64,000 nucleotides of DNA from Acidimicrobiia bacterium (GCA_035458525.1 DATHZQ010000040.1:7964-71963); one strand, 5' to 3'; shown: positions 44,634-63,458, counted from the first letter of the stretch. Notes: generated by a model not told the origin, from the sequence alone. Program-made: numbers and translations.

Positions 44634-45409
44634 ACGGCCGCGTGATCACCATGAAGGACGCCGCCGCGTTCGAGAAGATGACCATCGCCGGCCAATGTGT
44701 CGCCGCGGCCCACGCCGCCGTGCGCCAGGCGGCAGAGCCAGGGGTCTCGATGAAGGATCTCGATGCGGTTGCGGCCGAGGTGATTCGCGACCACGACTGC
44801 CGGCCCTCGTTCTTGGGCTATCACGGCTATCCGGCGACGATCTGTGCCTCACCCAACTCGGTGATCGTCCACGGCATCCCCGACGGCTACAAGCTGACGG
44901 ACGGCGACATCATCTCGGTCGACGTGGGCGCGATCTATGAAGGGTGGCACGGCGACGCTGCGTTCACCATGGCGGTGGGCGACGTACCGGCCGAGGTGGC
45001 CAAGCTCATCGAAGTCACCGAGCAAGGGCTCTGGAACGGCATCGCCCAAGCGAGGGCTGGAAAGCGCCTCGGTGACGTTGGGAACGCCATCGAGACCACC
45101 GCCAAGCCCCACGGCTACGGCGTCGTTCGCGAGTACATCGGTCACGGCATCGGGCGCAACATGCACGAAGCGCCCAATGTCCCCAACTACGGCAAGAAGG
45201 GCAAGGGACTCAAGCTGAAGACCGGCATGGCTCTCGCCATCGAGCCCATGTTCAACCTCGGCACGGCCGAGACGGCACTCCTCGATGACGGCTGGACCGT
45301 CGTCACCGCCGATGGGGCCTTGTCCGCCCACTTCGAACACACCGTGTTGCTCACGGAGCAAGGGTCGATCGTGTCGACCCTCCCCGAGCCGAAACTCGTC
45401 GGCGTCTGA
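44630..45409 (+). CDS. map: Type I methionine aminopeptidase
   Basis: GTGA overlap with adk. GYHGYP, VDVGA, GHGIGRNMHE and EHTV metal-ligand blocks. Confidence 0.95.
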   Translation: MNGRVITMKDAAAFEKMTIAGQCVAAAHAAVRQAAEPGVSMKDLDAVAAEVIRDHDCRPSFLGYHGYPATICASPNSVIVHGIPDGYKLTDGDIISVDVGAIYEGWHGDAAFTMAVGDVPAEVAKLIEVTEQGLWNGIAQARAGKRLGDVGNAIETTAKPHGYGVVREYIGHGIGRNMHEAPNVPNYGKKGKGLKLKTGMALAIEPMFNLGTAETALLDDGWTVVTADGALSAHFEHTVLLTEQGSIVSTLPEPKLVGV

Positions 45410-45423
45410 TTCCTGCGTACCTG

Positions 45424-45441
45424 GCCGCGGCATGCCGCGGC
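45424..45441. terminator. Perfect 18-bp palindrome/hairpin after map
   Basis: GCCGCGGCATGCCGCGGC (7-bp stem, CATG loop) 15 nt after the map stop. No U-tract. Confidence 0.35.
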
Positions 45442-45579
45442 GAGCTACGCAAGTTCGCCGAACGAGCGCGATCCTCGCTGAGGGCGCGGTTCCGGCGCGC
45501 ATCACGGGACCGGTCGGGTCTGGGGCCTCTGGTTGCGGGCGGGCGCCGGGGCGAAGCTGATGTGGACGGGAGGTTTCTG

Positions 45580-46047
45580 ATGCCGGAGATATCTGTCCGA
45601 ACGCTGGAGCGGCAACCCACGCTCGTGATGTGGGGCAAGGTGGTCGTCAAAGACATGCCGCAGTTCCTCGGCAGAGCGTTTCGCGCTGCGGCCACCCACG
45701 CCGAGACCCTCGGCACGGAGATCTGCGGGCCGCCGTTCGCTCGCTACCGGCCGCTGGACAGCGAATTCAAGGAGTTCGAGGTGGAGGCCGGGTTCCCGGT
45801 GACCAATGAGCCGACCGGATCTGAAGAGGTGGATGCCTCATCGCTCCCCGCCGGGCCGGCGGCCGTAGCAATGCACATCGGACCCTACGACGCGATGGTG
45901 CCCGCTTACGACGCGATCGTGGCGTTCCTCCGCGAGCAACACGCCGAGGCGTTTGGCCCGGCCTGGGAGGTATATCTCTCAGACGCCAGCGAGGAGCCGG
46001 ACCCGGCGAAGTGGCGTACCGAGATCGTGCAACCGTTCATGGCGTAG
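45580..46047 (+). CDS. GyrI-like small-molecule-binding domain protein
   Basis: ORF 45562..46047. ~155 aa with the two-repeat pattern (FEVEAGFPV, WEVYLSD...PAKWRTEI) typical of GyrI/SbmC-like effector-binding domains. Confidence 0.65.
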   Translation: MPEISVRTLERQPTLVMWGKVVVKDMPQFLGRAFRAAATHAETLGTEICGPPFARYRPLDSEFKEFEVEAGFPVTNEPTGSEEVDASSLPAGPAAVAMHIGPYDAMVPAYDAIVAFLREQHAEAFGPAWEVYLSDASEEPDPAKWRTEIVQPFMA

Positions 46048-46151
46048 TTCGACCGTCATCGGGGGGCGATGGGCGCCTGCCCGGTGAGGGCGCGGAACGC
46101 TTCGTCGTCCGACCGCCACTGAGCGGGCGCTGATGGGCGCTGAGGTCGGGC

Positions 46152-46903
46152 TCACTGCGTCGTTGCCTGGGTGCGATACCAGTACTGGTACTCGGCGCCG
46201 AAGCCGTGACCCGAGTAAAACGCCCGAGCCGGCGTGTTCTCTGTCTGTAGCTGGAGAAACGCCATCGTTGCGCCGTTGCTCCGACCCCGCGCCTGCAGTG
46301 CCTGCAACACCTGCGTACCCAGCCCCGAGCCACGAAGATGCCGGGCGGTGTGCATCACATAGATGGCGACGGCGTCGTCCCACACCACGCCCATGCCCAT
46401 CGCAGCGACTTCGCCGGCGGCCTCCAGCTCGGCGTACGCCGTTGGAGTGGGGAGGCGGGCAAGCATCGAGCGGACCACGTCCGGGTCCGTTCCGTGAGGG
46501 AGCGTCGTGACATCAACGCTTCGAACCAGCGAGCCGACGGAGCCTGGTCGATGCGGACGTCGCCGGGCTCCGAAGCGTCCTCGATGCGCCGGGTCATCAC
46601 GTCGACGGCATTCTCACGGCGGTAGCCGCGGGCGCCGAGGGTCATTTCGAGCTCGGTCGGGGCGAGCTCGGTGAGCCGAAATCGACACGGCAACCCCAGC
46701 GCCGCATACCACCGTTCCGCATCGCGAAGAGCGGCCAGCAGGGTTCCATCCGGCTGCCCCAGCGGGCTCACCGAGTTGGAGCGGTTGGTGACACCGCGGG
46801 CGGTGCGGAACACCCACGACCCGTCGGTGTGGTGTTCGAGGGCCGGCCAGGTGGCCAGTCCGATCTCCTCCAGCCGCCGGATTCGCTCCGGCCTGCCGGT
46901 CAC
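46152..46903 (-). pseudogene. GNAT family acetyltransferase, frame-disrupted
   Basis: The N-terminal half is in the frame of ORF 46355..46975 (from GTG 46903). The GNAT core (VVWDDAVAIYVMHTARHLRGSGLGTQVLQALQ...AFYSGHGF) is in the frame of ORF 46152..46478. That second frame is open upstream through ~46530, so a frameshift near 46490-46520 is implied. Confidence 0.65.
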
Positions 46904-47622
46904 GTCAGGTCGTCGAGGTACAGCGGGAGCATCGCCCGCCAGGTCGGCCAGTCGTGGTCCCACTGCCGGCCCCAATCGTCGACGCGGTTCGGGATGCCTT
47001 TCGAGCCCAGGAGCTCCGCCACCTGCCAGCTCTCGCTTGGATCCTCCCAGCGACCGCTCCCGGTGGCCAGGATGATGAAGCGCTGCCGCAGCCGGTCGAG
47101 CACCGGACCGCCGAGATCCGGCAGGAAGTGGAGCGGAGACGAGTAGTAGAAGTCGTCGCTCCAGTGGCCGCCCAGCCGGTCGGAGAGGTCGTAGCTCCCG
47201 CTCATGCAGATCGCGCTGCGGATCACGTCGGGGTGGCGGCTGATGGTCTCGAGCGCCCAGAAGGCTCCGATCGACGAACCGGCCGTGATGATCTCGATGT
47301 GGTCATCGTGGCAATCCGCCCGGATGGCCGGCACCGCTTCCTCCCGGATGAACCGGTCGAACTGGTTCTGCAGCCACATCGAGTGCCGGGGGTCGTCCTG
47401 TTCGAGCCACGAACGGCCCGACACCGAATCGACGGAGTACACCTTGATCCGGCCGGCCGAGAGCAATCCTGCGAGTGCGTCGATCAACTGGAAGCGCTCG
47501 ACCTCCTCGGCGTCGCCGCCCGCCGTCGGAAAGACGAGCACCGGTGTGCCGATGCTGCCCCACCGGGCCATGGACACCCACTGCTCCAGGCGAGGGGAAT
47601 ACCAGCGCTCGACGGCCTTCAC
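46900..47622 (-). CDS. Alpha/beta-hydrolase esterase (putative-esterase/enterochelin-esterase-like fold), 240 aa
   Basis: GSSIG nucleophile elbow (ITAGSSIGAFWA). GTG start overlaps the ATP-grasp stop (GTGA). Confidence 0.75.
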   Translation of the reverse strand: MKAVERWYSPRLEQWVSMARWGSIGTPVLVFPTAGGDAEEVERFQLIDALAGLLSAGRIKVYSVDSVSGRSWLEQDDPRHSMWLQNQFDRFIREEAVPAIRADCHDDHIEIITAGSSIGAFWALETISRHPDVIRSAICMSGSYDLSDRLGGHWSDDFYYSSPLHFLPDLGGPVLDRLRQRFIILATGSGRWEDPSESWQVAELLGSKGIPNRVDDWGRQWDHDWPTWRAMLPLYLDDLT

Positions 47623-48869
47623 GACGGATCCAGGCGATCGCGCTCGGTCCGCCGCCAGAACTGGATCAACCCCCAGAAGTGCTCGGTGAACTGGTCGACT
47701 TCCTGCGCGGGGAACATCGTCTCGACTTTGTGGCGGATGATTCCCTTCGCCCGCTCCGTGGCGAAATAGTCGAGCGTGATCTCGTCGAGGTCGGCCAGGT
47801 GGTCGTCACAGAACTCGGCGAAGCGATCGGCTTCGAGACGCCGCCTGGCGAGGCTCCCGAGCGCCGCAAGCCGCTCTCCATGGTCGTCGTGTGCTTCCGC
47901 GGTCGCGAAGAACTCGTGCCAGTTGAGGTCGTGGCGCATGGGGCGCCGGGTCGCCGCACAGAACAGCGACCAGCGGATCAGCGCCTTGACGAGCCACGGG
48001 ATGTGGAAGTGCAGCGACGTCACCTGAGAGTCCGGGTTGGCGTTGGCGAAATCGATGGGGTGGTACACCCCGTCCTGACGCAGCGCTTCGCAGGAGTTGA
48101 AGTCCCACCCGAAGAACGTGTTGATGGTGAGCGTGAGGTCGGCGAGCTGATTCCAGTCGGCCCCGTCGACGAAATCGAAAGCGACCTTGTAGCGGTCGTG
48201 CAATGGTGCATCCGGGTCGTACCGCATCACGTTGACCTGGGGCCCCACGGCGAGGCAGCGCACGAACAGGTCGAACGGCTCGACTGCCCTTTGGGCGTGC
48301 ATGATCCGCGTGCCCGAGGCGTCGTAGGCGGCCTTGAGCTGGCCGGCGTCCTCGATGCGGCTCACTCCGACCCACGCGCCGCCGTCGTACGGCTTGAGGA
48401 ACATCGGAAATCCGATCTCCTCGCCGATCGCATCGAGATCGAACATCTGGGCGTAGCGCTCGAGGGTCACGTGGAGATCGTCGGCGTGGTCGTACTCCTT
48501 CGGCGGGAGTAGATACGTCTGCGGGACGGGCACGCCCAGCCGCATCATGGCGGCGTACGACGTGTGTTTCTGCATCGCCTGCAACGTGAACGGATTGTTC
48601 AAGACGTACAGGTCGTCCTTCACGACCGCCTTCTTGATCCACTCGCGACTGGTGTGATACCAGGGCGTGAGCCGGTCGAGCACCAGGTCGTAGCGCACCG
48701 GCTGGTTGAGGTCGAAAGGTTCGATCGTCACCCGCTCGACGCCGAAACGGAGCGTCTTGCCCGCCACCGTGGCCCGTGGGTCGAGCCTTGCGACGATGTC
48801 CTCGTAGAACTGCGGCCAGCACAGATCAGCGCCGAGGCTGAGGCCGATGAGTCGCGTCGAGCTGGTCAT
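47619..48869 (-). CDS. ATP-grasp fold protein of unassigned subfamily, 416 aa
   Basis: Central IGFPMFLKPYDGGAWVGVSRIED...HAQRAVEPFDLFVRCLAVG region resembles the ATP-grasp nucleotide-binding core. A ~100-aa helical C-terminal extension follows. Confidence 0.6.
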   Translation of the reverse strand: MTSSTRLIGLSLGADLCWPQFYEDIVARLDPRATVAGKTLRFGVERVTIEPFDLNQPVRYDLVLDRLTPWYHTSREWIKKAVVKDDLYVLNNPFTLQAMQKHTSYAAMMRLGVPVPQTYLLPPKEYDHADDLHVTLERYAQMFDLDAIGEEIGFPMFLKPYDGGAWVGVSRIEDAGQLKAAYDASGTRIMHAQRAVEPFDLFVRCLAVGPQVNVMRYDPDAPLHDRYKVAFDFVDGADWNQLADLTLTINTFFGWDFNSCEALRQDGVYHPIDFANANPDSQVTSLHFHIPWLVKALIRWSLFCAATRRPMRHDLNWHEFFATAEAHDDHGERLAALGSLARRRLEADRFAEFCDDHLADLDEITLDYFATERAKGIIRHKVETMFPAQEVDQFTEHFWGLIQFWRRTERDRLDPS

Positions 48870-48878
48870 GGCGCCAAC

Positions 48879-50027
48879 CTAGTGGTGCACCGGCGCCGGG
48901 AAGAGCTCGCGCAGTGCGTCGCCGAGGTTGTTGCGCCAGTTCTGCCAGTGGTGACCGTCGAGCGGTTCGCGGTAGGACACATCGATGCCGGCCAGCCGCA
49001 GGCGGGACACGAAGGCCATGTTGTCCGTCGACAGCGCTTCGAACGCCCCACACGCAACCCAGGCCATCGGCGTCGGCAGCCCGGGGCCACTGTGGAACCG
49101 GTGCATGAAGTCGACGACGGGCTGCAGCTCCGGCCCCCGGTGCCACGGTCCCCCCAGCTCTGTGATGAAGGTTCCGGAGAGCAACACCATTGCGCCAAAG
49201 ACATCTGGGTGGCGCCATGCCGTAGCCAGGCTGGCGACGGCGCCGAGGCTGGCGCCGCCGATCACTCGGTGGCGAGGCTCCGAGCTGATCTGGAATTCGG
49301 AAGTGACGCCGGGCACGATCTCGTCGACAATCGATCGGCCGTGGGCGGGTAGCGCCATGTACTCGCGGTTCCGGTCGACGGGGTCCATCAACACGACCAC
49401 GGTGGGGCGCATCGCACCCGCGCCGATCAGGCTGTCGAGCGACGTCGTGAGCGCGGCGTATTGGATCAGATCGCTGCCGTCGTGAAGGAACACCGCCGGG
49501 TACGGCGCCGCCGCCGGAAATCCTGCAGGGACGTACACCGAGTGGGAGCGTTTGCCGCCGAGCGCCTTCGAGTCGATCTCTATGGTCTCGACATCGCCGC
49601 GAGCGGCGTCCACGCTCGGCGATGTCCACATCGGGTCCACGTAACCGAGGGCGTGCGCAACCGAGTTGGCCCCAAACGGATCGTGTGCGATCCGGGTGTT
49701 CAAAGGATCGATGGTGCGCTGTGTCTCGTGGTCCCACTCGATCTCGAGCTGGTACTCCATGCGAGTGCGCTGCGGCAGCTTCACCGTCACGGACCACAGA
49801 TCGGTGCTCTCGAACCGTTCCATGTCGGGGATCTTCGGAAACTGCGCCATGAAGTGAACGACCCGAACCGCCCGCGGGCTCCCGACGTAGGTGAACGTGA
49901 CCGTTTCGCCGTCGATGAACGGGGTTCTGGCCCGCGTCAGGCGTCGTCGCAGATATGCGGGTGCCATGGATCGGGCTGCTTCGGCAACCGCCTCAGGCAG
50001 GGGGAACCGGGGAAACGTCTCGCTCAT
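48879..50027 (-). CDS. Esterase with N-terminal beta-sandwich-like domain plus enterochelin-esterase-like alpha/beta core, 382 aa
   Basis: GASLG nucleophile elbow (VIGGASLGAVASL), YVPAG...PYPAVFLHDG block, ~150-aa N-terminal extension. Confidence 0.75.
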   Translation of the reverse strand: MSETFPRFPLPEAVAEAARSMAPAYLRRRLTRARTPFIDGETVTFTYVGSPRAVRVVHFMAQFPKIPDMERFESTDLWSVTVKLPQRTRMEYQLEIEWDHETQRTIDPLNTRIAHDPFGANSVAHALGYVDPMWTSPSVDAARGDVETIEIDSKALGGKRSHSVYVPAGFPAAAPYPAVFLHDGSDLIQYAALTTSLDSLIGAGAMRPTVVVLMDPVDRNREYMALPAHGRSIVDEIVPGVTSEFQISSEPRHRVIGGASLGAVASLATAWRHPDVFGAMVLLSGTFITELGGPWHRGPELQPVVDFMHRFHSGPGLPTPMAWVACGAFEALSTDNMAFVSRLRLAGIDVSYREPLDGHHWQNWRNNLGDALRELFPAPVHH

Positions 50028-50209
50028 GACGCCAGAGGCTACCGGCCGCTCGAGGCGCTCGCTGCCGTCTGACCTCTCGGAAACCCCTTCCCCAAGGGCT
50101 TGGCCTGCACTATCGTCGTGGCTGTCGGGCAGATTGCGCTGCGATGTGCCGTCAGTTTCATTCGTCCTCTAATATTCCCCGTCCGGTCCAGTTCCGGGCC
50201 GGTTTTCTT

Positions 50210-50431
50210 GTGGCAAAAACAGACGACGTCATCGAGGTTGAAGGCACCGTCGTCGAGCCCCTCCCGAACGCGATGTTCAGGGTCAAGCTCGACAACGGCC
50301 ATGAGGTGCTCTGCCACATCTCAGGCAAGATGCGGAAGCACTACATCCGCATCATCCCTGGGGATCGGGTGCGCCTCGCCATGTCGCCCTATGACCTCGA
50401 ACGAGGCAGGATCACGTACAGGTACCGATGA
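50210..50431 (+). CDS. infA: Translation initiation factor IF-1
   Basis: ORF 50144..50431 trimmed to the GTG at 50210. [41 protein letters not shown]. Confidence 0.96.
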
Positions 50432-50541
50432 AAGTTTCCGCATCAGTCAAGAAGATGTGCGAGAAGTGCCGGGTCATCCGGCGGCACGGTCGCGTCTGGG
50501 TGATCTGCTCCAATCCGCGACACAAGCAACGTCAGGGGTAG
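50428..50541 (+). CDS. rpmJ: 50S ribosomal protein L36 (zinc-binding C-plus form)
   Basis: Not in the ORF track (37 aa). [41 protein letters not shown] overlap with infA. Confidence 0.95.
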
Positions 50542-50547
50542 CGCAGC

Positions 50548-50925
50548 ATGGCCCGTATCGCAGGAACCGACCTCCCGAGGGACAAGCGCGTCGAGATTGG
50601 CCTCACGTACATCTTCGGCGTCGGCAAGACGACGTCGCAGCTGATCCTGCACGACCTCGACATCAACCTCGACACCAAGGTCCGGGATCTGACGGACAAC
50701 GAGGTCGTTCAGATCCGCCAGTACATCGATGCCAATCTCACCGTGGAAGGTGATCTTCGCCGCGACGTGGCGCAGAACATCAAGCGCAAGATCGAGATCG
50801 GCAGCTATCAGGGTCTCCGGCACCGCCGGGGCCTGCCCGTTCGGGGGCAGCGGACGCACACCAACGCCCGCACCCGAAAGGGCAAGTCGGCGCCCGTCGC
50901 CGGCAAGAAAAAGGTCACCAAGTAG
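50548..50925 (+). CDS. rpsM: 30S ribosomal protein S13
   Basis: [24 protein letters not shown]. Confidence 0.97.
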
Positions 50926-61302: not shown

Positions 61303-61429
61303 TCCACGCGACTCGCCTGCCGAACTCGAGCGCCGCAGGTCCGGCATCGCGGGGGGTCCCAAGACCTATGGCGCAACACCTCGACCGGTCTATCCTGATC
61401 GGGTACAACCGACGACCGGAGCATCCAAC

Positions 61430-61560
61430 CTCAAGCGCCCGGCCTCATCCGTGAGGTGACGAGGAAGAGGGAGTATCGAACGATTCGGCGGATGCCCTCT
61501 CGGCCCCCCAGGGTCGTGACGATGTGGGCCAAAGCCCGAGGGTGACCTCGGTGACAACGT
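61430..61560 (+). ncRNA. glmS ribozyme (GlcN6P-activated self-cleaving riboswitch)
   Basis: A/GCGCC cleavage-site context at 61434/61435. Conserved core strings GACGAGGAAGAGGGAGUAUCGAACGAUUCGGCGGAUGCCCUC. Downstream GGGCCAAAGCCC and CGAGGGUGACCUCG helices. Lies 75-200 nt upstream of glmS. Confidence 0.85.
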
Positions 61561-61634
61561 CCACGTCGGTCTGGGAACGGACATCGACGTGTCCGTTCTT
61601 CGAGCTCCGGTCCCGAACAAGGAGGTCCGCGCGC

Positions 61635-63458
61635 GTGTGCGGAATCATGGGATACGTAGGGCCGCGCACGGCGGCGCCGCTCATCCTCGACGGCCTGCGC
61701 CGCTTGGAGTACCGCGGCTACGACTCAGCCGGCATCGCCGTCGCCAACGGCGACATTCAGGTCCGCAAGGCGGAGGGGAAGATCGAACGACTGTCCAACC
61801 TCCTTGCGGACGATCCGCTCGAAGGTACGGTCGGCATCGGCCACACCCGTTGGGCGACGCACGGCGAGCCGAGTGACATCAACGCCCACCCCCACACCGA
61901 CCCCTCTGGTCGATTTGTGGTGGTGCACAACGGAATCATCGAGAACTTCCACGAGCTGAAGCAGCGGCTTGCAGAAGCGGGTCATGCGTTCCAGTCCGAG
62001 ACCGATTCCGAAATCCTCGCCCACCTCGTCGCACTGGAGTACGACGGCGACCTCGTCGCCGCGGTGCGTCGTGCCATCGGCCACGCCGAAGGGGCCTACG
62101 CCCTGGTGGTGATGACTGCGGAAGAGCCGGGCAAGATCGTGGCCGTTCGCAAGATCAGCCCGCTCGTTGTGGGGCTTGGAGACGGTGAGACGTTTCTCGC
62201 CTCGGACATCCCCGCGGTGCTGCAACACACCAGAGACTTCCTCATCGTGGAGGACGGCGAGCTGGTGGTCGTCGATGCCAACGGTGCGACCGTCGAGCTC
62301 ATCGAAGGCGGTGCCGTCGATCGGGAAGTCCTGCATGTCGATTGGGACGCCGAGCAAGCCGAAAAGGGCGGCTACGAGCACTTCATGCTCAAGGAGATCA
62401 ACGAGCAGCCGGCCGTGGTGACCGAGACCGTTGGCGGTCGGCTGGACGGCGACGGTGAAGTATGGCTCGAGGACGTGCACTTCGATGACGAGTTTGCGCG
62501 AAACCTCGAGCGCATCTGGATCACCGCATGCGGGACCGCGCTGCACGCTGGCCTGGTCGGCCGCGAGATCTTCCAGCGCATCCTGCGGATCCCTACGTCG
62601 GTCGAGTTCGCTCATGAGATGCGGTACGGCGATCCGCTCGTCGAGTCCGGCAGCCTGACGATCGCCATCAGCCAGTCCGGCGAGACGGCCGACACGCTGG
62701 CGGCGGCGCGACTGGCGCACGAGCGCGGCTCTCGCCTGCTGGCCCTGACGAACGTCGTCGGATCGACGCTCAGCCGCGAGGCCGACGACATCCTGTACAC
62801 CAGGGCCGGGCCCGAGATCTCCGTCGCCTCGACAAAGGCATACGTGGCGATGCTGATCGCCGAGTACCTGCTGGCGTTGCGCATCGGAAGAGCGCGGGGC
62901 GTCGTGGATGAAGCGCTCGCACAGCGCGTGGCTCGCGGGCTGCACCTGCTGCCTGCGCAGATCGAGGGCATCCTCGAACGAGAGGACGAGGCGGTGAAGG
63001 CGGCGCACGCGATCGCTGACGCCGACGACGTGTACTTCATCGGCCGTGGACTCGACTATGCCGTGGCCATGGAAGGCTCCTTGAAGCTGAAAGAGATCAG
63101 CTATCTGCACTCGGAGGCGATGCCGGCCGGCGAGCTGAAGCACGGCACGCTTGCCCTCGTCACCCACGGGACGCCCGTGATCGTCGTGTTGACCCAGACC
63201 GCCGTGTACGACAAGACGATGTCGGCAGTGCAAGAGGTGAAAGCTCGTGGCGCCACCGTCCTGGCGGTGGCCTACGAGGACGACGACAAGATCGGCAACT
63301 TCGCAGATGCCGTCATCCGTATCCCGCGCAACGACGACCTGCTGAGCCCGGTGGCGGCCATCGTGCCGTTGCAGTTGCTTGCGTATCACGTCGCCAAGCT
63401 GCGGGGACACGACATCGACCAACCCCGCAATCTCGCCAAGTCGGTGACGGTGGAGTGA
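61635..63458 (+). CDS. glmS: Glutamine--fructose-6-phosphate aminotransferase
   Basis: ORF 61524..63458 trimmed to the GTG at 61635 (V)CGIMGYVG, with AAGGAGG 9 nt upstream. Ends ...RNLAKSVTVE. Confidence 0.96.
   Translation: MCGIMGYVGPRTAAPLILDGLRRLEYRGYDSAGIAVANGDIQVRKAEGKIERLSNLLADDPLEGTVGIGHTRWATHGEPSDINAHPHTDPSGRFVVVHNGIIENFHELKQRLAEAGHAFQSETDSEILAHLVALEYDGDLVAAVRRAIGHAEGAYALVVMTAEEPGKIVAVRKISPLVVGLGDGETFLASDIPAVLQHTRDFLIVEDGELVVVDANGATVELIEGGAVDREVLHVDWDAEQAEKGGYEHFMLKEINEQPAVVTETVGGRLDGDGEVWLEDVHFDDEFARNLERIWITACGTALHAGLVGREIFQRILRIPTSVEFAHEMRYGDPLVESGSLTIAISQSGETADTLAAARLAHERGSRLLALTNVVGSTLSREADDILYTRAGPEISVASTKAYVAMLIAEYLLALRIGRARGVVDEALAQRVARGLHLLPAQIEGILEREDEAVKAAHAIADADDVYFIGRGLDYAVAMEGSLKLKEISYLHSEAMPAGELKHGTLALVTHGTPVIVVLTQTAVYDKTMSAVQEVKARGATVLAVAYEDDDKIGNFADAVIRIPRNDDLLSPVAAIVPLQLLAYHVAKLRGHDIDQPRNLAKSVTVE

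Follow-up and report, generated by a model that had tools for sequence, protein, structure and literature searches.

We analyzed a 64,000-nucleotide stretch of DNA from an Acidimicrobiia bacterium (GCA_035458525.1 DATHZQ010000040.1:7964-71963; hereafter the window), in which three adjacent minus-strand genes encode an esterase, a ligase of the ATP-grasp superfamily and a second esterase. This trio (estA, the ligase gene and estB) is kept in at least 60 species of three phyla. We propose, with a confidence a little short of even, that it is a functional cassette in which the ligase and the hydrolases would make and break a bond on a cytoplasmic substrate tied to storage alpha-glucan metabolism. 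The three genes and the two domains that set their products apart are:

48879-50027, minus strand: estA, an open reading frame (ORF) for a 382-residue serine esterase (PF00756) with an N-terminal beta-sandwich domain
49578-50027, minus strand: N-terminal domain of EstA (residues 1-150), which resembles the N-domain of Fes and the CBM20 and CBM48 modules
47619-48869, minus strand: ATP-grasp ligase gene, 416 residues, with the ATP-grasp core at about residues 1-310
47622-47921, minus strand: C-terminal helical domain of the ligase (residues 317-416), family-specific, from the AlphaFold2 model
46900-47622, minus strand: estB, an ORF for a 240-residue compact serine hydrolase (PF00756)

The initial annotation, made by reading the window by eye, had described four co-directional minus-strand genes, the fourth being a broken GNAT gene to which we return below, packed with a 9-nucleotide gap and two GTGA overlaps. 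The ORF layout agrees with this description in every respect. The gap separates estA from the ligase gene (48870-48878, by the ORF coordinates), the GTGA at 47619-47622 contains both the ligase stop and the estB start, and the second overlap, at 46900-46903, joins the stop of estB to a GTG at 46903.

The same annotation could fit the ATP-grasp protein into no characterised subfamily, and neither could we: all its scores against Pfam, NCBIfam and the PDB lie below family thresholds, and no Pfam or NCBIfam family reaches its own. The model rimK_fam (TIGR00768) gives 24.3 bits (E = 1.8e-5) over a partial match to residues 58-184, with a cutoff of 143.4. Dala_Dala_lig_C (PF07478) gives 17.9 bits against a cutoff of 24 and the Ddl model TIGR01205 gives 20 bits against 245.65, the Ddl-type matches being confined to the surroundings of the KP/Gly loop (about 40 residues). 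LysX reaches 16.8 bits, with a LysX/ArgX equivalog cutoff of 275.6, and a small ORF for a LysW-type carrier is not conserved among 82 loci. Chains of CphA are matched at E = 0.24-0.65, and with 416 residues and no Mur-ligase domain the protein falls outside the cyanophycin synthetases (about 870 residues). Sequence and profile searches of the PDB return matches at E = 3.5e-4 or weaker, limited to about 45 residues around the strand-loop 'FLKPYDGGAWVGVS'.

The AlphaFold2 model of the ligase, made with 26 homologues, has a predicted local distance difference test score (pLDDT) of 80.5 and a predicted TM-score (pTM) of 0.83. Its nearest Foldseek neighbours are RimK (5zk6, 4iwx, 7qyr), ArgX/LysX (3vpb, 3vpd, 1uc9) and Ddl; the best matches have E-values of about 6e-9, target-normalised TM-scores of 0.6-0.68 and identities of 13-17%, the Foldseek probability is 1.00 for RimK, LysX, ArgX and Ddl alike, and 449 PDB matches are found at E of 1e-3 or below. 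As modelled, the ligase has the three-domain ATP-grasp fold and belongs to the superfamily. The residues that are invariant in the 26 sequences (K159-P160, G163-G164-x-W-x-G168, D200/R204, D256/N258 and D273/N276) would, by motif analogy, be its ATP and Mg motifs and, since these are intact, the ligase is predicted to be active. The model also bears out the helical tail of about 100 residues that had been read from the sequence: residues 317-413 are all-helical, with a pLDDT of 87-96. This tail lies outside the Foldseek matches, because the alignments span about 300 columns and the targets 250-360 residues, and it is kept even in P0263, a family member only 28% identical to the ligase.

The ligase family is large, with more than 5800 clusters at 90% identity, and highly conserved. 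Mean column identity is 65% in the 26-sequence alignment, and members from different phyla are 58-62% identical to one another. In a library of 1.84 billion proteins the main clade is a single representative at 50% identity, and only 293 representatives of the family fall below 1e-30, many of them fragments. Ten longer members, considered as possible informative domain fusions, carry no extra Pfam domains and probably reflect mis-called starts, so we set them aside.

Both esterases belong to PF00756 (gathering score 22), EstA with 75.4 bits (E = 7.7e-21) and EstB with 30.7 bits (E = 3.4e-7). The nucleophile elbows first noticed by eye, GASLG in EstA and GSSIG in EstB, are present, and their serines (S260 and S117) are invariant in orthologues. 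In EstB, whose 6501 homologues have a near-fixed length of 240-242 residues, the invariant set comprises G115-x-S117-x-G119, E193 and H223; in EstA, H182-D-G, G258-A-S260-L-G262 and H359 are kept in at least 96% of 67 orthologues. By spacing analogy to antigen 85, the catalytic acids are probably E193 in EstB and E330 in EstA. The AlphaFold2 model of EstB (pLDDT 87) is nearest, at a TM-score of about 0.7, to the CE1 feruloyl esterase 5vol, the S-formylglutathione hydrolase FrmB and antigen 85C. Sequence searches of the PDB with EstA find CE1 ferulic acid esterases, the CBM48-CE1 protein 7b5v and Fes, and the enterochelin esterase model NF007758 scores 85.6 bits (E = 3.2e-24) against a cutoff of 222, which leaves EstA outside the Fes family. 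From the sequences, no signal peptide is evident in either protein, and a cytoplasmic location is therefore expected for both.

What distinguishes EstA is its N-terminal region, the beta-sandwich-like extension of about 150 residues of the initial annotation. Its relationships are distant, all family matches being at or below the family thresholds. Among the N-domains of 49 orthologues, Enterochelin_N matches 40, CBM_20 15 and CBM_48 14 (best E = 2.9e-6); the Enterochelin_N scores of EstA are 22.6-24.4 bits, with a threshold of 27.1. The domain of the window itself matches CBM_20 at E = 0.035 and GlgB_N at E = 0.0019, and the top PDB match of the N-domain profile is a glucoamylase starch-binding domain (1ac0, E = 7e-4). 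Y92, D107, N110, P117, G119, N121 and S122 are invariant.

Relatives of the ligase are encoded in at least 575 stretches of the GTDB species genomes scanned, and the best 80 of these come from Acidimicrobiia, from Acidobacteriota (mostly Thermoanaerobaculia) and from Myxococcota (Nannocystis, Polyangiaceae). Counting loci with sufficient flanking DNA, estA is directly upstream of the ligase gene and on the same strand in 60 of 76, estB is directly downstream in 57 of 76, and the overlap between ligase stop and estB start is exactly 4 nucleotides in 36 of 44. In three loci with called genes the trio sits in three unrelated flanking contexts. The adjacency of esterases and ATP-grasp gene is therefore conserved across three phyla. 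The initial annotation had named two findings that would speak against a distinct system, a strong score of the ATP-grasp protein to a functionally characterised family and an adjacency not conserved in related genomes; in view of the profile searches, the Foldseek comparison and these counts, neither was observed. One disturbance of the order was found in a relative: in L004 (4296-5789), the closest relative with 86% ligase identity, a DDE_Tnp_1_4 transposase lies between estA and the ligase gene and breaks the tight coupling of the two seen elsewhere.

Constraint is unequal along the cassette. Between an acidimicrobial locus (L043) and one from Thermoanaerobaculia (L063), identity is 62% for the ligase and 57% for EstB, and falls to 37% for EstA, 35% for GlgA and 33% for GlgC. 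Judged from these identities, the ligase and EstB are under unusually strong constraint, consistent with a complex between them or with a macromolecular substrate. Horizontal gene transfer is unlikely to be the whole story behind such similarity across phyla, since EstA, GlgA and GlgC of the same loci are only 33-37% identical. Some exchange did occur, as the existence of two EstA subtypes indicates (L041:10632-12685 compared with L043:4990-5979). The EstA of L041, which is paired with an S51-like gene, is 55-58% identical to copies from Acidobacteriota and Myxococcota and only 35% to the usual type of Acidimicrobiia, a pattern that hints at transfer of an estA/S51 module between phyla. We also considered a mobile or plasmid-borne trait and rejected it: tblastn found no match among 72,556 plasmids, and the insert and its flanks have overlapping GC contents (0.64-0.70 and 0.61-0.69), which gives no clear sign of recent transfer.

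The gene context was studied by clustering all ORFs of 82 loci, with follow-up searches; six-frame clustering yields shadow ORFs in such high-GC DNA, and clusters c0, c4, c9, c13, c25, c26 and c47, being antisense or in an alternative frame, were left out. An amylosucrase gene lies within 6 kb of the cassette in 14 loci, directly after estB in at least ten loci of Acidimicrobiia, and its product matches the amylosucrase of N. polysaccharea (1g5a) at E = 3e-144. In L030, L041 and L043 the slot after estB is filled by GlgA instead, with GlgC convergent, and GlgA and GlgC are found just downstream in six loci of Acidobacteriota (L034, L047, L051, L056, L063 and L065). In all, a gene for alpha-1,4-glucan synthesis is within 6 kb in 24 of 82 loci. 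In L041 the glg genes stand between a ligase-estB pair and an estA-c5 pair (c5 being the S51-like gene described below), and the gene of P0263, full-length and with the helical tail in spite of its distance, starts 13 nucleotides after an alpha-amylase gene with a CBM20. Two non-homologous synthases of the same polymer in one operon slot, together with a domain resembling a carbohydrate-binding module (CBM) and CE1-like esterases, provide the strongest clue to function.

A different set of neighbours is found mainly outside Acidimicrobiia. Directly upstream of estA, 26-27 loci of Acidobacteriota and Myxococcota, plus one locus of Acidimicrobiia, encode a protein of about 310 residues (c5) with the invariant pattern AGGH...AWSAGAM...FHD...E, in which S205, H219 and E230 are invariant, and with a long coiled-coil-like insertion. 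It has no Pfam match in our scan and a weak precomputed match to PF03575 in Nannocystis pusilla. Aligned with hhalign (97.7%, E = 1.5e-12), it is homologous to a 464-residue Pfam-S51 protein that directly precedes the divergent ligase members P0141 and P0160. In 15 loci the cassette is flanked by one to three extra ATP-grasp_4 ligases that resemble L-amino-acid ligases. The cultured organism N. pusilla (GCA_020073745.1, L093 5282-13631) has a seven-gene form, in which two ATP-grasp genes are divergent from the S51-like gene, esterase, ligase, esterase and a further ATP-grasp gene. This extended cluster of four ATP-grasp ligases, one S51-like hydrolase and two PF00756 esterases, also seen in L059, L080 and L083, suggests the stepwise assembly of a multi-residue product in Myxococcota.

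One or both esterases are absent from some ligase loci. The divergent or esterase-less members of the family (L084:3654-6765, L085:4768-7934, L089:5749-6912 and L082:1694-4910) repeatedly have HEAT-repeat, DUF3806 and HD_5 phosphohydrolase-like proteins on their flanks, and one relative of the ligase is encoded near a MATCAP-family peptidase. A role in defence was considered and rejected, the anti-phage models of PADLOC having no match to the three window proteins, to c5 or to c14.

The most economical reading of these observations, offered as an inference, is a cycle in which one ester or amide bond is made and broken. The three genes would be co-translated as one functional cassette. With ATP, the ligase would activate a carboxyl group as an acyl-phosphate and join it to a hydroxyl or an amine, and the two Ser-His-acid hydrolases would cleave that bond or closely related ones, resulting in an ATP-driven cycle of making, trimming and removing on a cytoplasmic substrate. 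Esters are within the repertoire of ATP-grasp enzymes, which form them as well as amides, as in the VanA D-Ala-D-Lac ligase and the graspetide ligases. Gene context would tie this substrate to the metabolism of a storage alpha-1,4-glucan (glycogen-like), the likeliest modification being an amino-acid-derived or other carboxylic acyl group on the glucan or on a glucan-associated acceptor. EstA would dock on the glucan through its CBM20/48-like domain, and the ligase and EstB would probably work as a complex. In its most specific form, the proposal would have the ligase write an acyl or aminoacyl ester mark on glycogen, which the CBM-bearing EstA and EstB erase and which controls the solubility or turnover of the granule, a part that phosphate esters play in starch and mammalian glycogen; we regard this form as improbable.

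Several observations weigh against a link to glucans, or against a single cycle. No glucan gene is present within 6 kb in 58 of 82 loci, and the window likewise lacks one. The CBM-type matches of the EstA N-domain fall below threshold, and the fold concerned is also that of the Fes N-domain, for which no binding of glucans is known. Carboxyl and amine groups are both absent from glycogen, and we know of no acylated bacterial glycogen. The two hydrolases beside the ligase need not share one bond as their target and could serve different steps. HEAT and HD-domain proteins, with no esterase at all, accompany some members of the ligase family, and in Acidobacteriota and Myxococcota the conserved further partners, an S51-like peptidase and as many as three more ATP-grasp ligases, point to peptide chemistry.

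This last point leads to the alternative that we take most seriously, a cyanophycin-like cycle in which the ligase would extend a peptide or polyamide (possibly Asp/Glu-rich) and the hydrolases, including the S51-like one, would depolymerise it, the glycogen genes being adjacent as fellow storage functions. The position of c5 directly upstream of estA, its invariant Ser, His and Glu and its homology to the Pfam-S51 neighbour of divergent ligases all fit such a cycle, as do the L-amino-acid-ligase-like genes of 15 loci, N. pusilla among them. RimK, LysX and ArgX, the structural neighbours of the ligase, all ligate amino acids, and Foldseek on EstB also returns catalytic domains of S9 peptidases. 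However, a peptide or polyamide would leave unexplained why non-homologous glucan synthases occupy the fourth operon slot, why an alpha-amylase with a CBM20 stands beside a remote homologue, and why EstA has a CBM-like domain. Moreover, members of PF00756 are typically esterases or acyltransferases, not peptidases, and Acidimicrobiia, including the window, have a single ligase and usually no S51-like gene. On balance we hold this cycle to be unlikely, with a real chance of being correct. It has more explanatory reach than the two proposals that follow. In one, a conserved protein would be modified reversibly in the manner of RimK or tubulin-tyrosine ligase: the ligase would attach amino acids to a carboxylate at its C-terminus or on a side chain, and the hydrolases would erase them. 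The best structural matches are indeed RimK in complex with RpsF and LysX/ArgX with LysW, 58-62% identity between phyla is what a macromolecular substrate would lead us to expect, and HEAT-repeat proteins and a MATCAP-family peptidase occur near family members. Yet the cassette includes no conserved gene for a candidate substrate or carrier, its packing leaves no space for a small ORF, hydrolases of the esterase type would be an unusual choice for erasing peptide tails, the glucan context goes unaccounted for and the position among ribosomal operons is lineage-specific, all of which makes a protein tail improbable.

Release or recycling of a small molecule by a Fes-like esterase seems still less probable to us. 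Here the ligase would build an ester or amide metabolite, such as a seryl-ester oligomer, in a pathway akin to that of a siderophore or compatible solute. EstA does have the architecture of Fes, enterochelin esterase is its top NCBIfam match and Enterochelin_N recognises most orthologous N-domains; in the closest relatives, too, the fourth gene is a translationally coupled GNAT of the N-acetylglutamate synthase family. But the Fes score stays at 85.6 of the 222 bits required, the GNAT is dispensable and a pseudogene in the window, and no transporter, receptor, nonribosomal peptide synthetase (NRPS), NRPS-independent siderophore (NIS) synthetase or iron regulator is conserved nearby in the 82 loci. 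The plasmid search also gave no match, and secondary metabolism does not typically show conservation as extreme as that of the ligase. The hypothesis of a chance or historical juxtaposition of three unrelated genes draws on the loci that lack one or both esterases; it is effectively refuted by the synteny statistics, order, strand and 4-nucleotide overlap being kept in three phyla and many flanking contexts, with similar numbers of homologues for the ligase (more than 5800) and EstB (6501), and we consider it extremely improbable.

The glucan-linked make-and-break cycle that we tentatively favour would have precedents in its logic, the pairing of an ATP-grasp ligase with a hydrolase that undoes its product being a known theme, as in CphA and CphB or in tubulin-tyrosine ligase and its carboxypeptidases. 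The ligase shares with the RimK/LysX/ArgX/Ddl group the three-domain fold, the K-P strand, the Gly-rich loop, the acidic/Asn Mg ligands and, presumably, acyl-phosphate chemistry. It differs in being only 13-17% identical, with all family models far below cutoff, in the conserved helical C-domain of 100 residues, in invariant N-domain motifs (GLSLGAD and DRLTxWYxTSREWxKK) and, with respect to RimK, LysX and ArgX, in having esterases as partners rather than S6 or a LysW-type protein. With CphA and CphB (S51) the cassette has in common a ligase genetically paired with serine hydrolases that would undo the product, a cytoplasmic, storage-linked setting, and S51-type partners of the family in Acidobacteriota, Myxococcota and the divergent clade. 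The cassette ligase nevertheless lacks the Mur-ligase domain, its similarity to CphA is not significant (E = 0.24), and its partners in the window are PF00756 esterases instead of S51 proteins. EstA repeats the two-domain layout of Fes and of CBM48-CE1 esterases, with a beta-sandwich ahead of the PF00756 catalytic domain; it scores below the Fes cutoff, no genes for siderophores or xylan utilisation are nearby and, unlike those enzymes, EstA and EstB have no signal peptides and are in an operon with a ligase. With the phosphorylation cycle of starch and glycogen (glucan-water dikinase, SEX4/laforin) there is only an analogy, that of an ATP-using writer, hydrolytic erasers and targeting by CBM20 or CBM48, while here the enzyme families are other ones, there is no phosphohistidine domain and the ester proposed is carboxylic rather than a phosphate ester.

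A system with this architecture had been thought undescribed, and the full-text literature that we searched holds no description of it; a mention in the 2009 amidoligase survey of Iyer et al. is possible. Relative to Pfam, NCBIfam, the PDB, PADLOC and that literature, the ligase family, the two-esterase architecture and the glucan association are new. With a large and strongly conserved ligase family that has no Pfam or NCBIfam model and no solved structure, the cassette is a good target for enzyme discovery, and the fixed partnership of the ligase with two hydrolases, repeatedly coupled to two kinds of glucan synthase, offers a testable entry into cytoplasmic storage or modification chemistry. 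Were the substrate glycogen itself, a new class of glycogen modification would emerge; were it a peptide polymer, a new relative of cyanophycin. The lineages that carry the cassette (Acidimicrobiia, Thermoanaerobaculia and Nannocystineae) are abundant in soil, sediment and wastewater, and experiments are feasible because cultured carriers exist, among them Nannocystis pusilla and Paraliomyxa miuraensis.

The surroundings of the trio in the window include the following features:

46152-46903, minus strand: GNAT pseudogene, similar to Rv0428c_C / CG3035 N-acetylglutamate synthase, its two ORFs being the N- and C-halves
45562-46047, plus strand: GyrI-like gene, between map and the GNAT pseudogene
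50028-50212, divergent: intergenic region between the start of estA and the probable start of infA, presumed promoter region of the cassette

The GNAT gene is frameshifted, as had been noticed at the outset. It is split into ORFs at 46355-46975 and 46152-46478, and the frame switches at about 46480-46510; within the former, homology supports the GTG at 46903 as the true start, because the GNAT of L001 begins 4 nucleotides inside estB. Pfam assigns the two pieces to Rv0428c_C / Acetyltransf_1, and their scores of 71.8 and 37 bits against the CG3035 equivalog fall short of its cutoff of 280. The gene is intact as a single ORF in L001 (81% ligase identity; 250 residues as called) and in L004. An independent assembly (L092, GCA_041555635.1), 99.88% identical with zero gaps over 4051 nucleotides, has the same frameshift, and its annotation calls the C-terminal 104 residues alone. 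Since this assembly shows the identical frame structure, we reject a sequencing error as the simplest reading, a shared systematic error being possible. By tblastn, both halves of the GNAT are found in the four or five closest loci only, of 83. Being limited to the closest relatives and broken here, it is not a core member of the cassette, in which respect the operon as first drawn has to be shortened.

The genomic site calls for a similar revision. The cassette does lie between map and infA, with plus-strand secY, adk and map on one side, ending at 45409, and plus-strand infA, rpsM, rpsK, rpsD, rpoA and rplQ on the other, from about 50213; what had been overlooked is the GyrI-like gene between map and the cassette. 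Interruption of this junction, presented initially as a trait of the system, is common to about seven related species (L004-L008, L010 and L011), and elsewhere the trio occurs in unrelated contexts. The GNAT and the ribosomal-operon location are thus lineage-specific and incidental to the cassette. The GyrI-like gene, of the SRPBCC type (small-molecule-binding), converges on the cassette and occupies the same spot in the relatives L001 and L092.

A scan of 45400-50600 found neither a sigma-70 consensus nor a convincing internal terminator, and the promoter role of 50028-50212 is presumed from its position. Within this divergent region, a GC-rich hairpin followed by TTTTCTT (50181-50212, plus strand) stands immediately 5' of the probable infA start (about 50213) and looks like a terminator or attenuator; upstream of it there are 4 kb without any plus-strand gene. 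In L092:2568-2831 (about 50039-50317 of the window, minus strand) the public annotation has an ORF of 87 residues antisense to infA and omits infA, probably a gene-calling error in high-GC DNA. Further along the window, a full-length glmS ribozyme (RF00234, 88.2 bits, E = 5.6e-19) is found at 61423-61577 on the plus strand, and directly 3' of it lies a glmS-sized ORF (61524-63458, 644 residues as listed).

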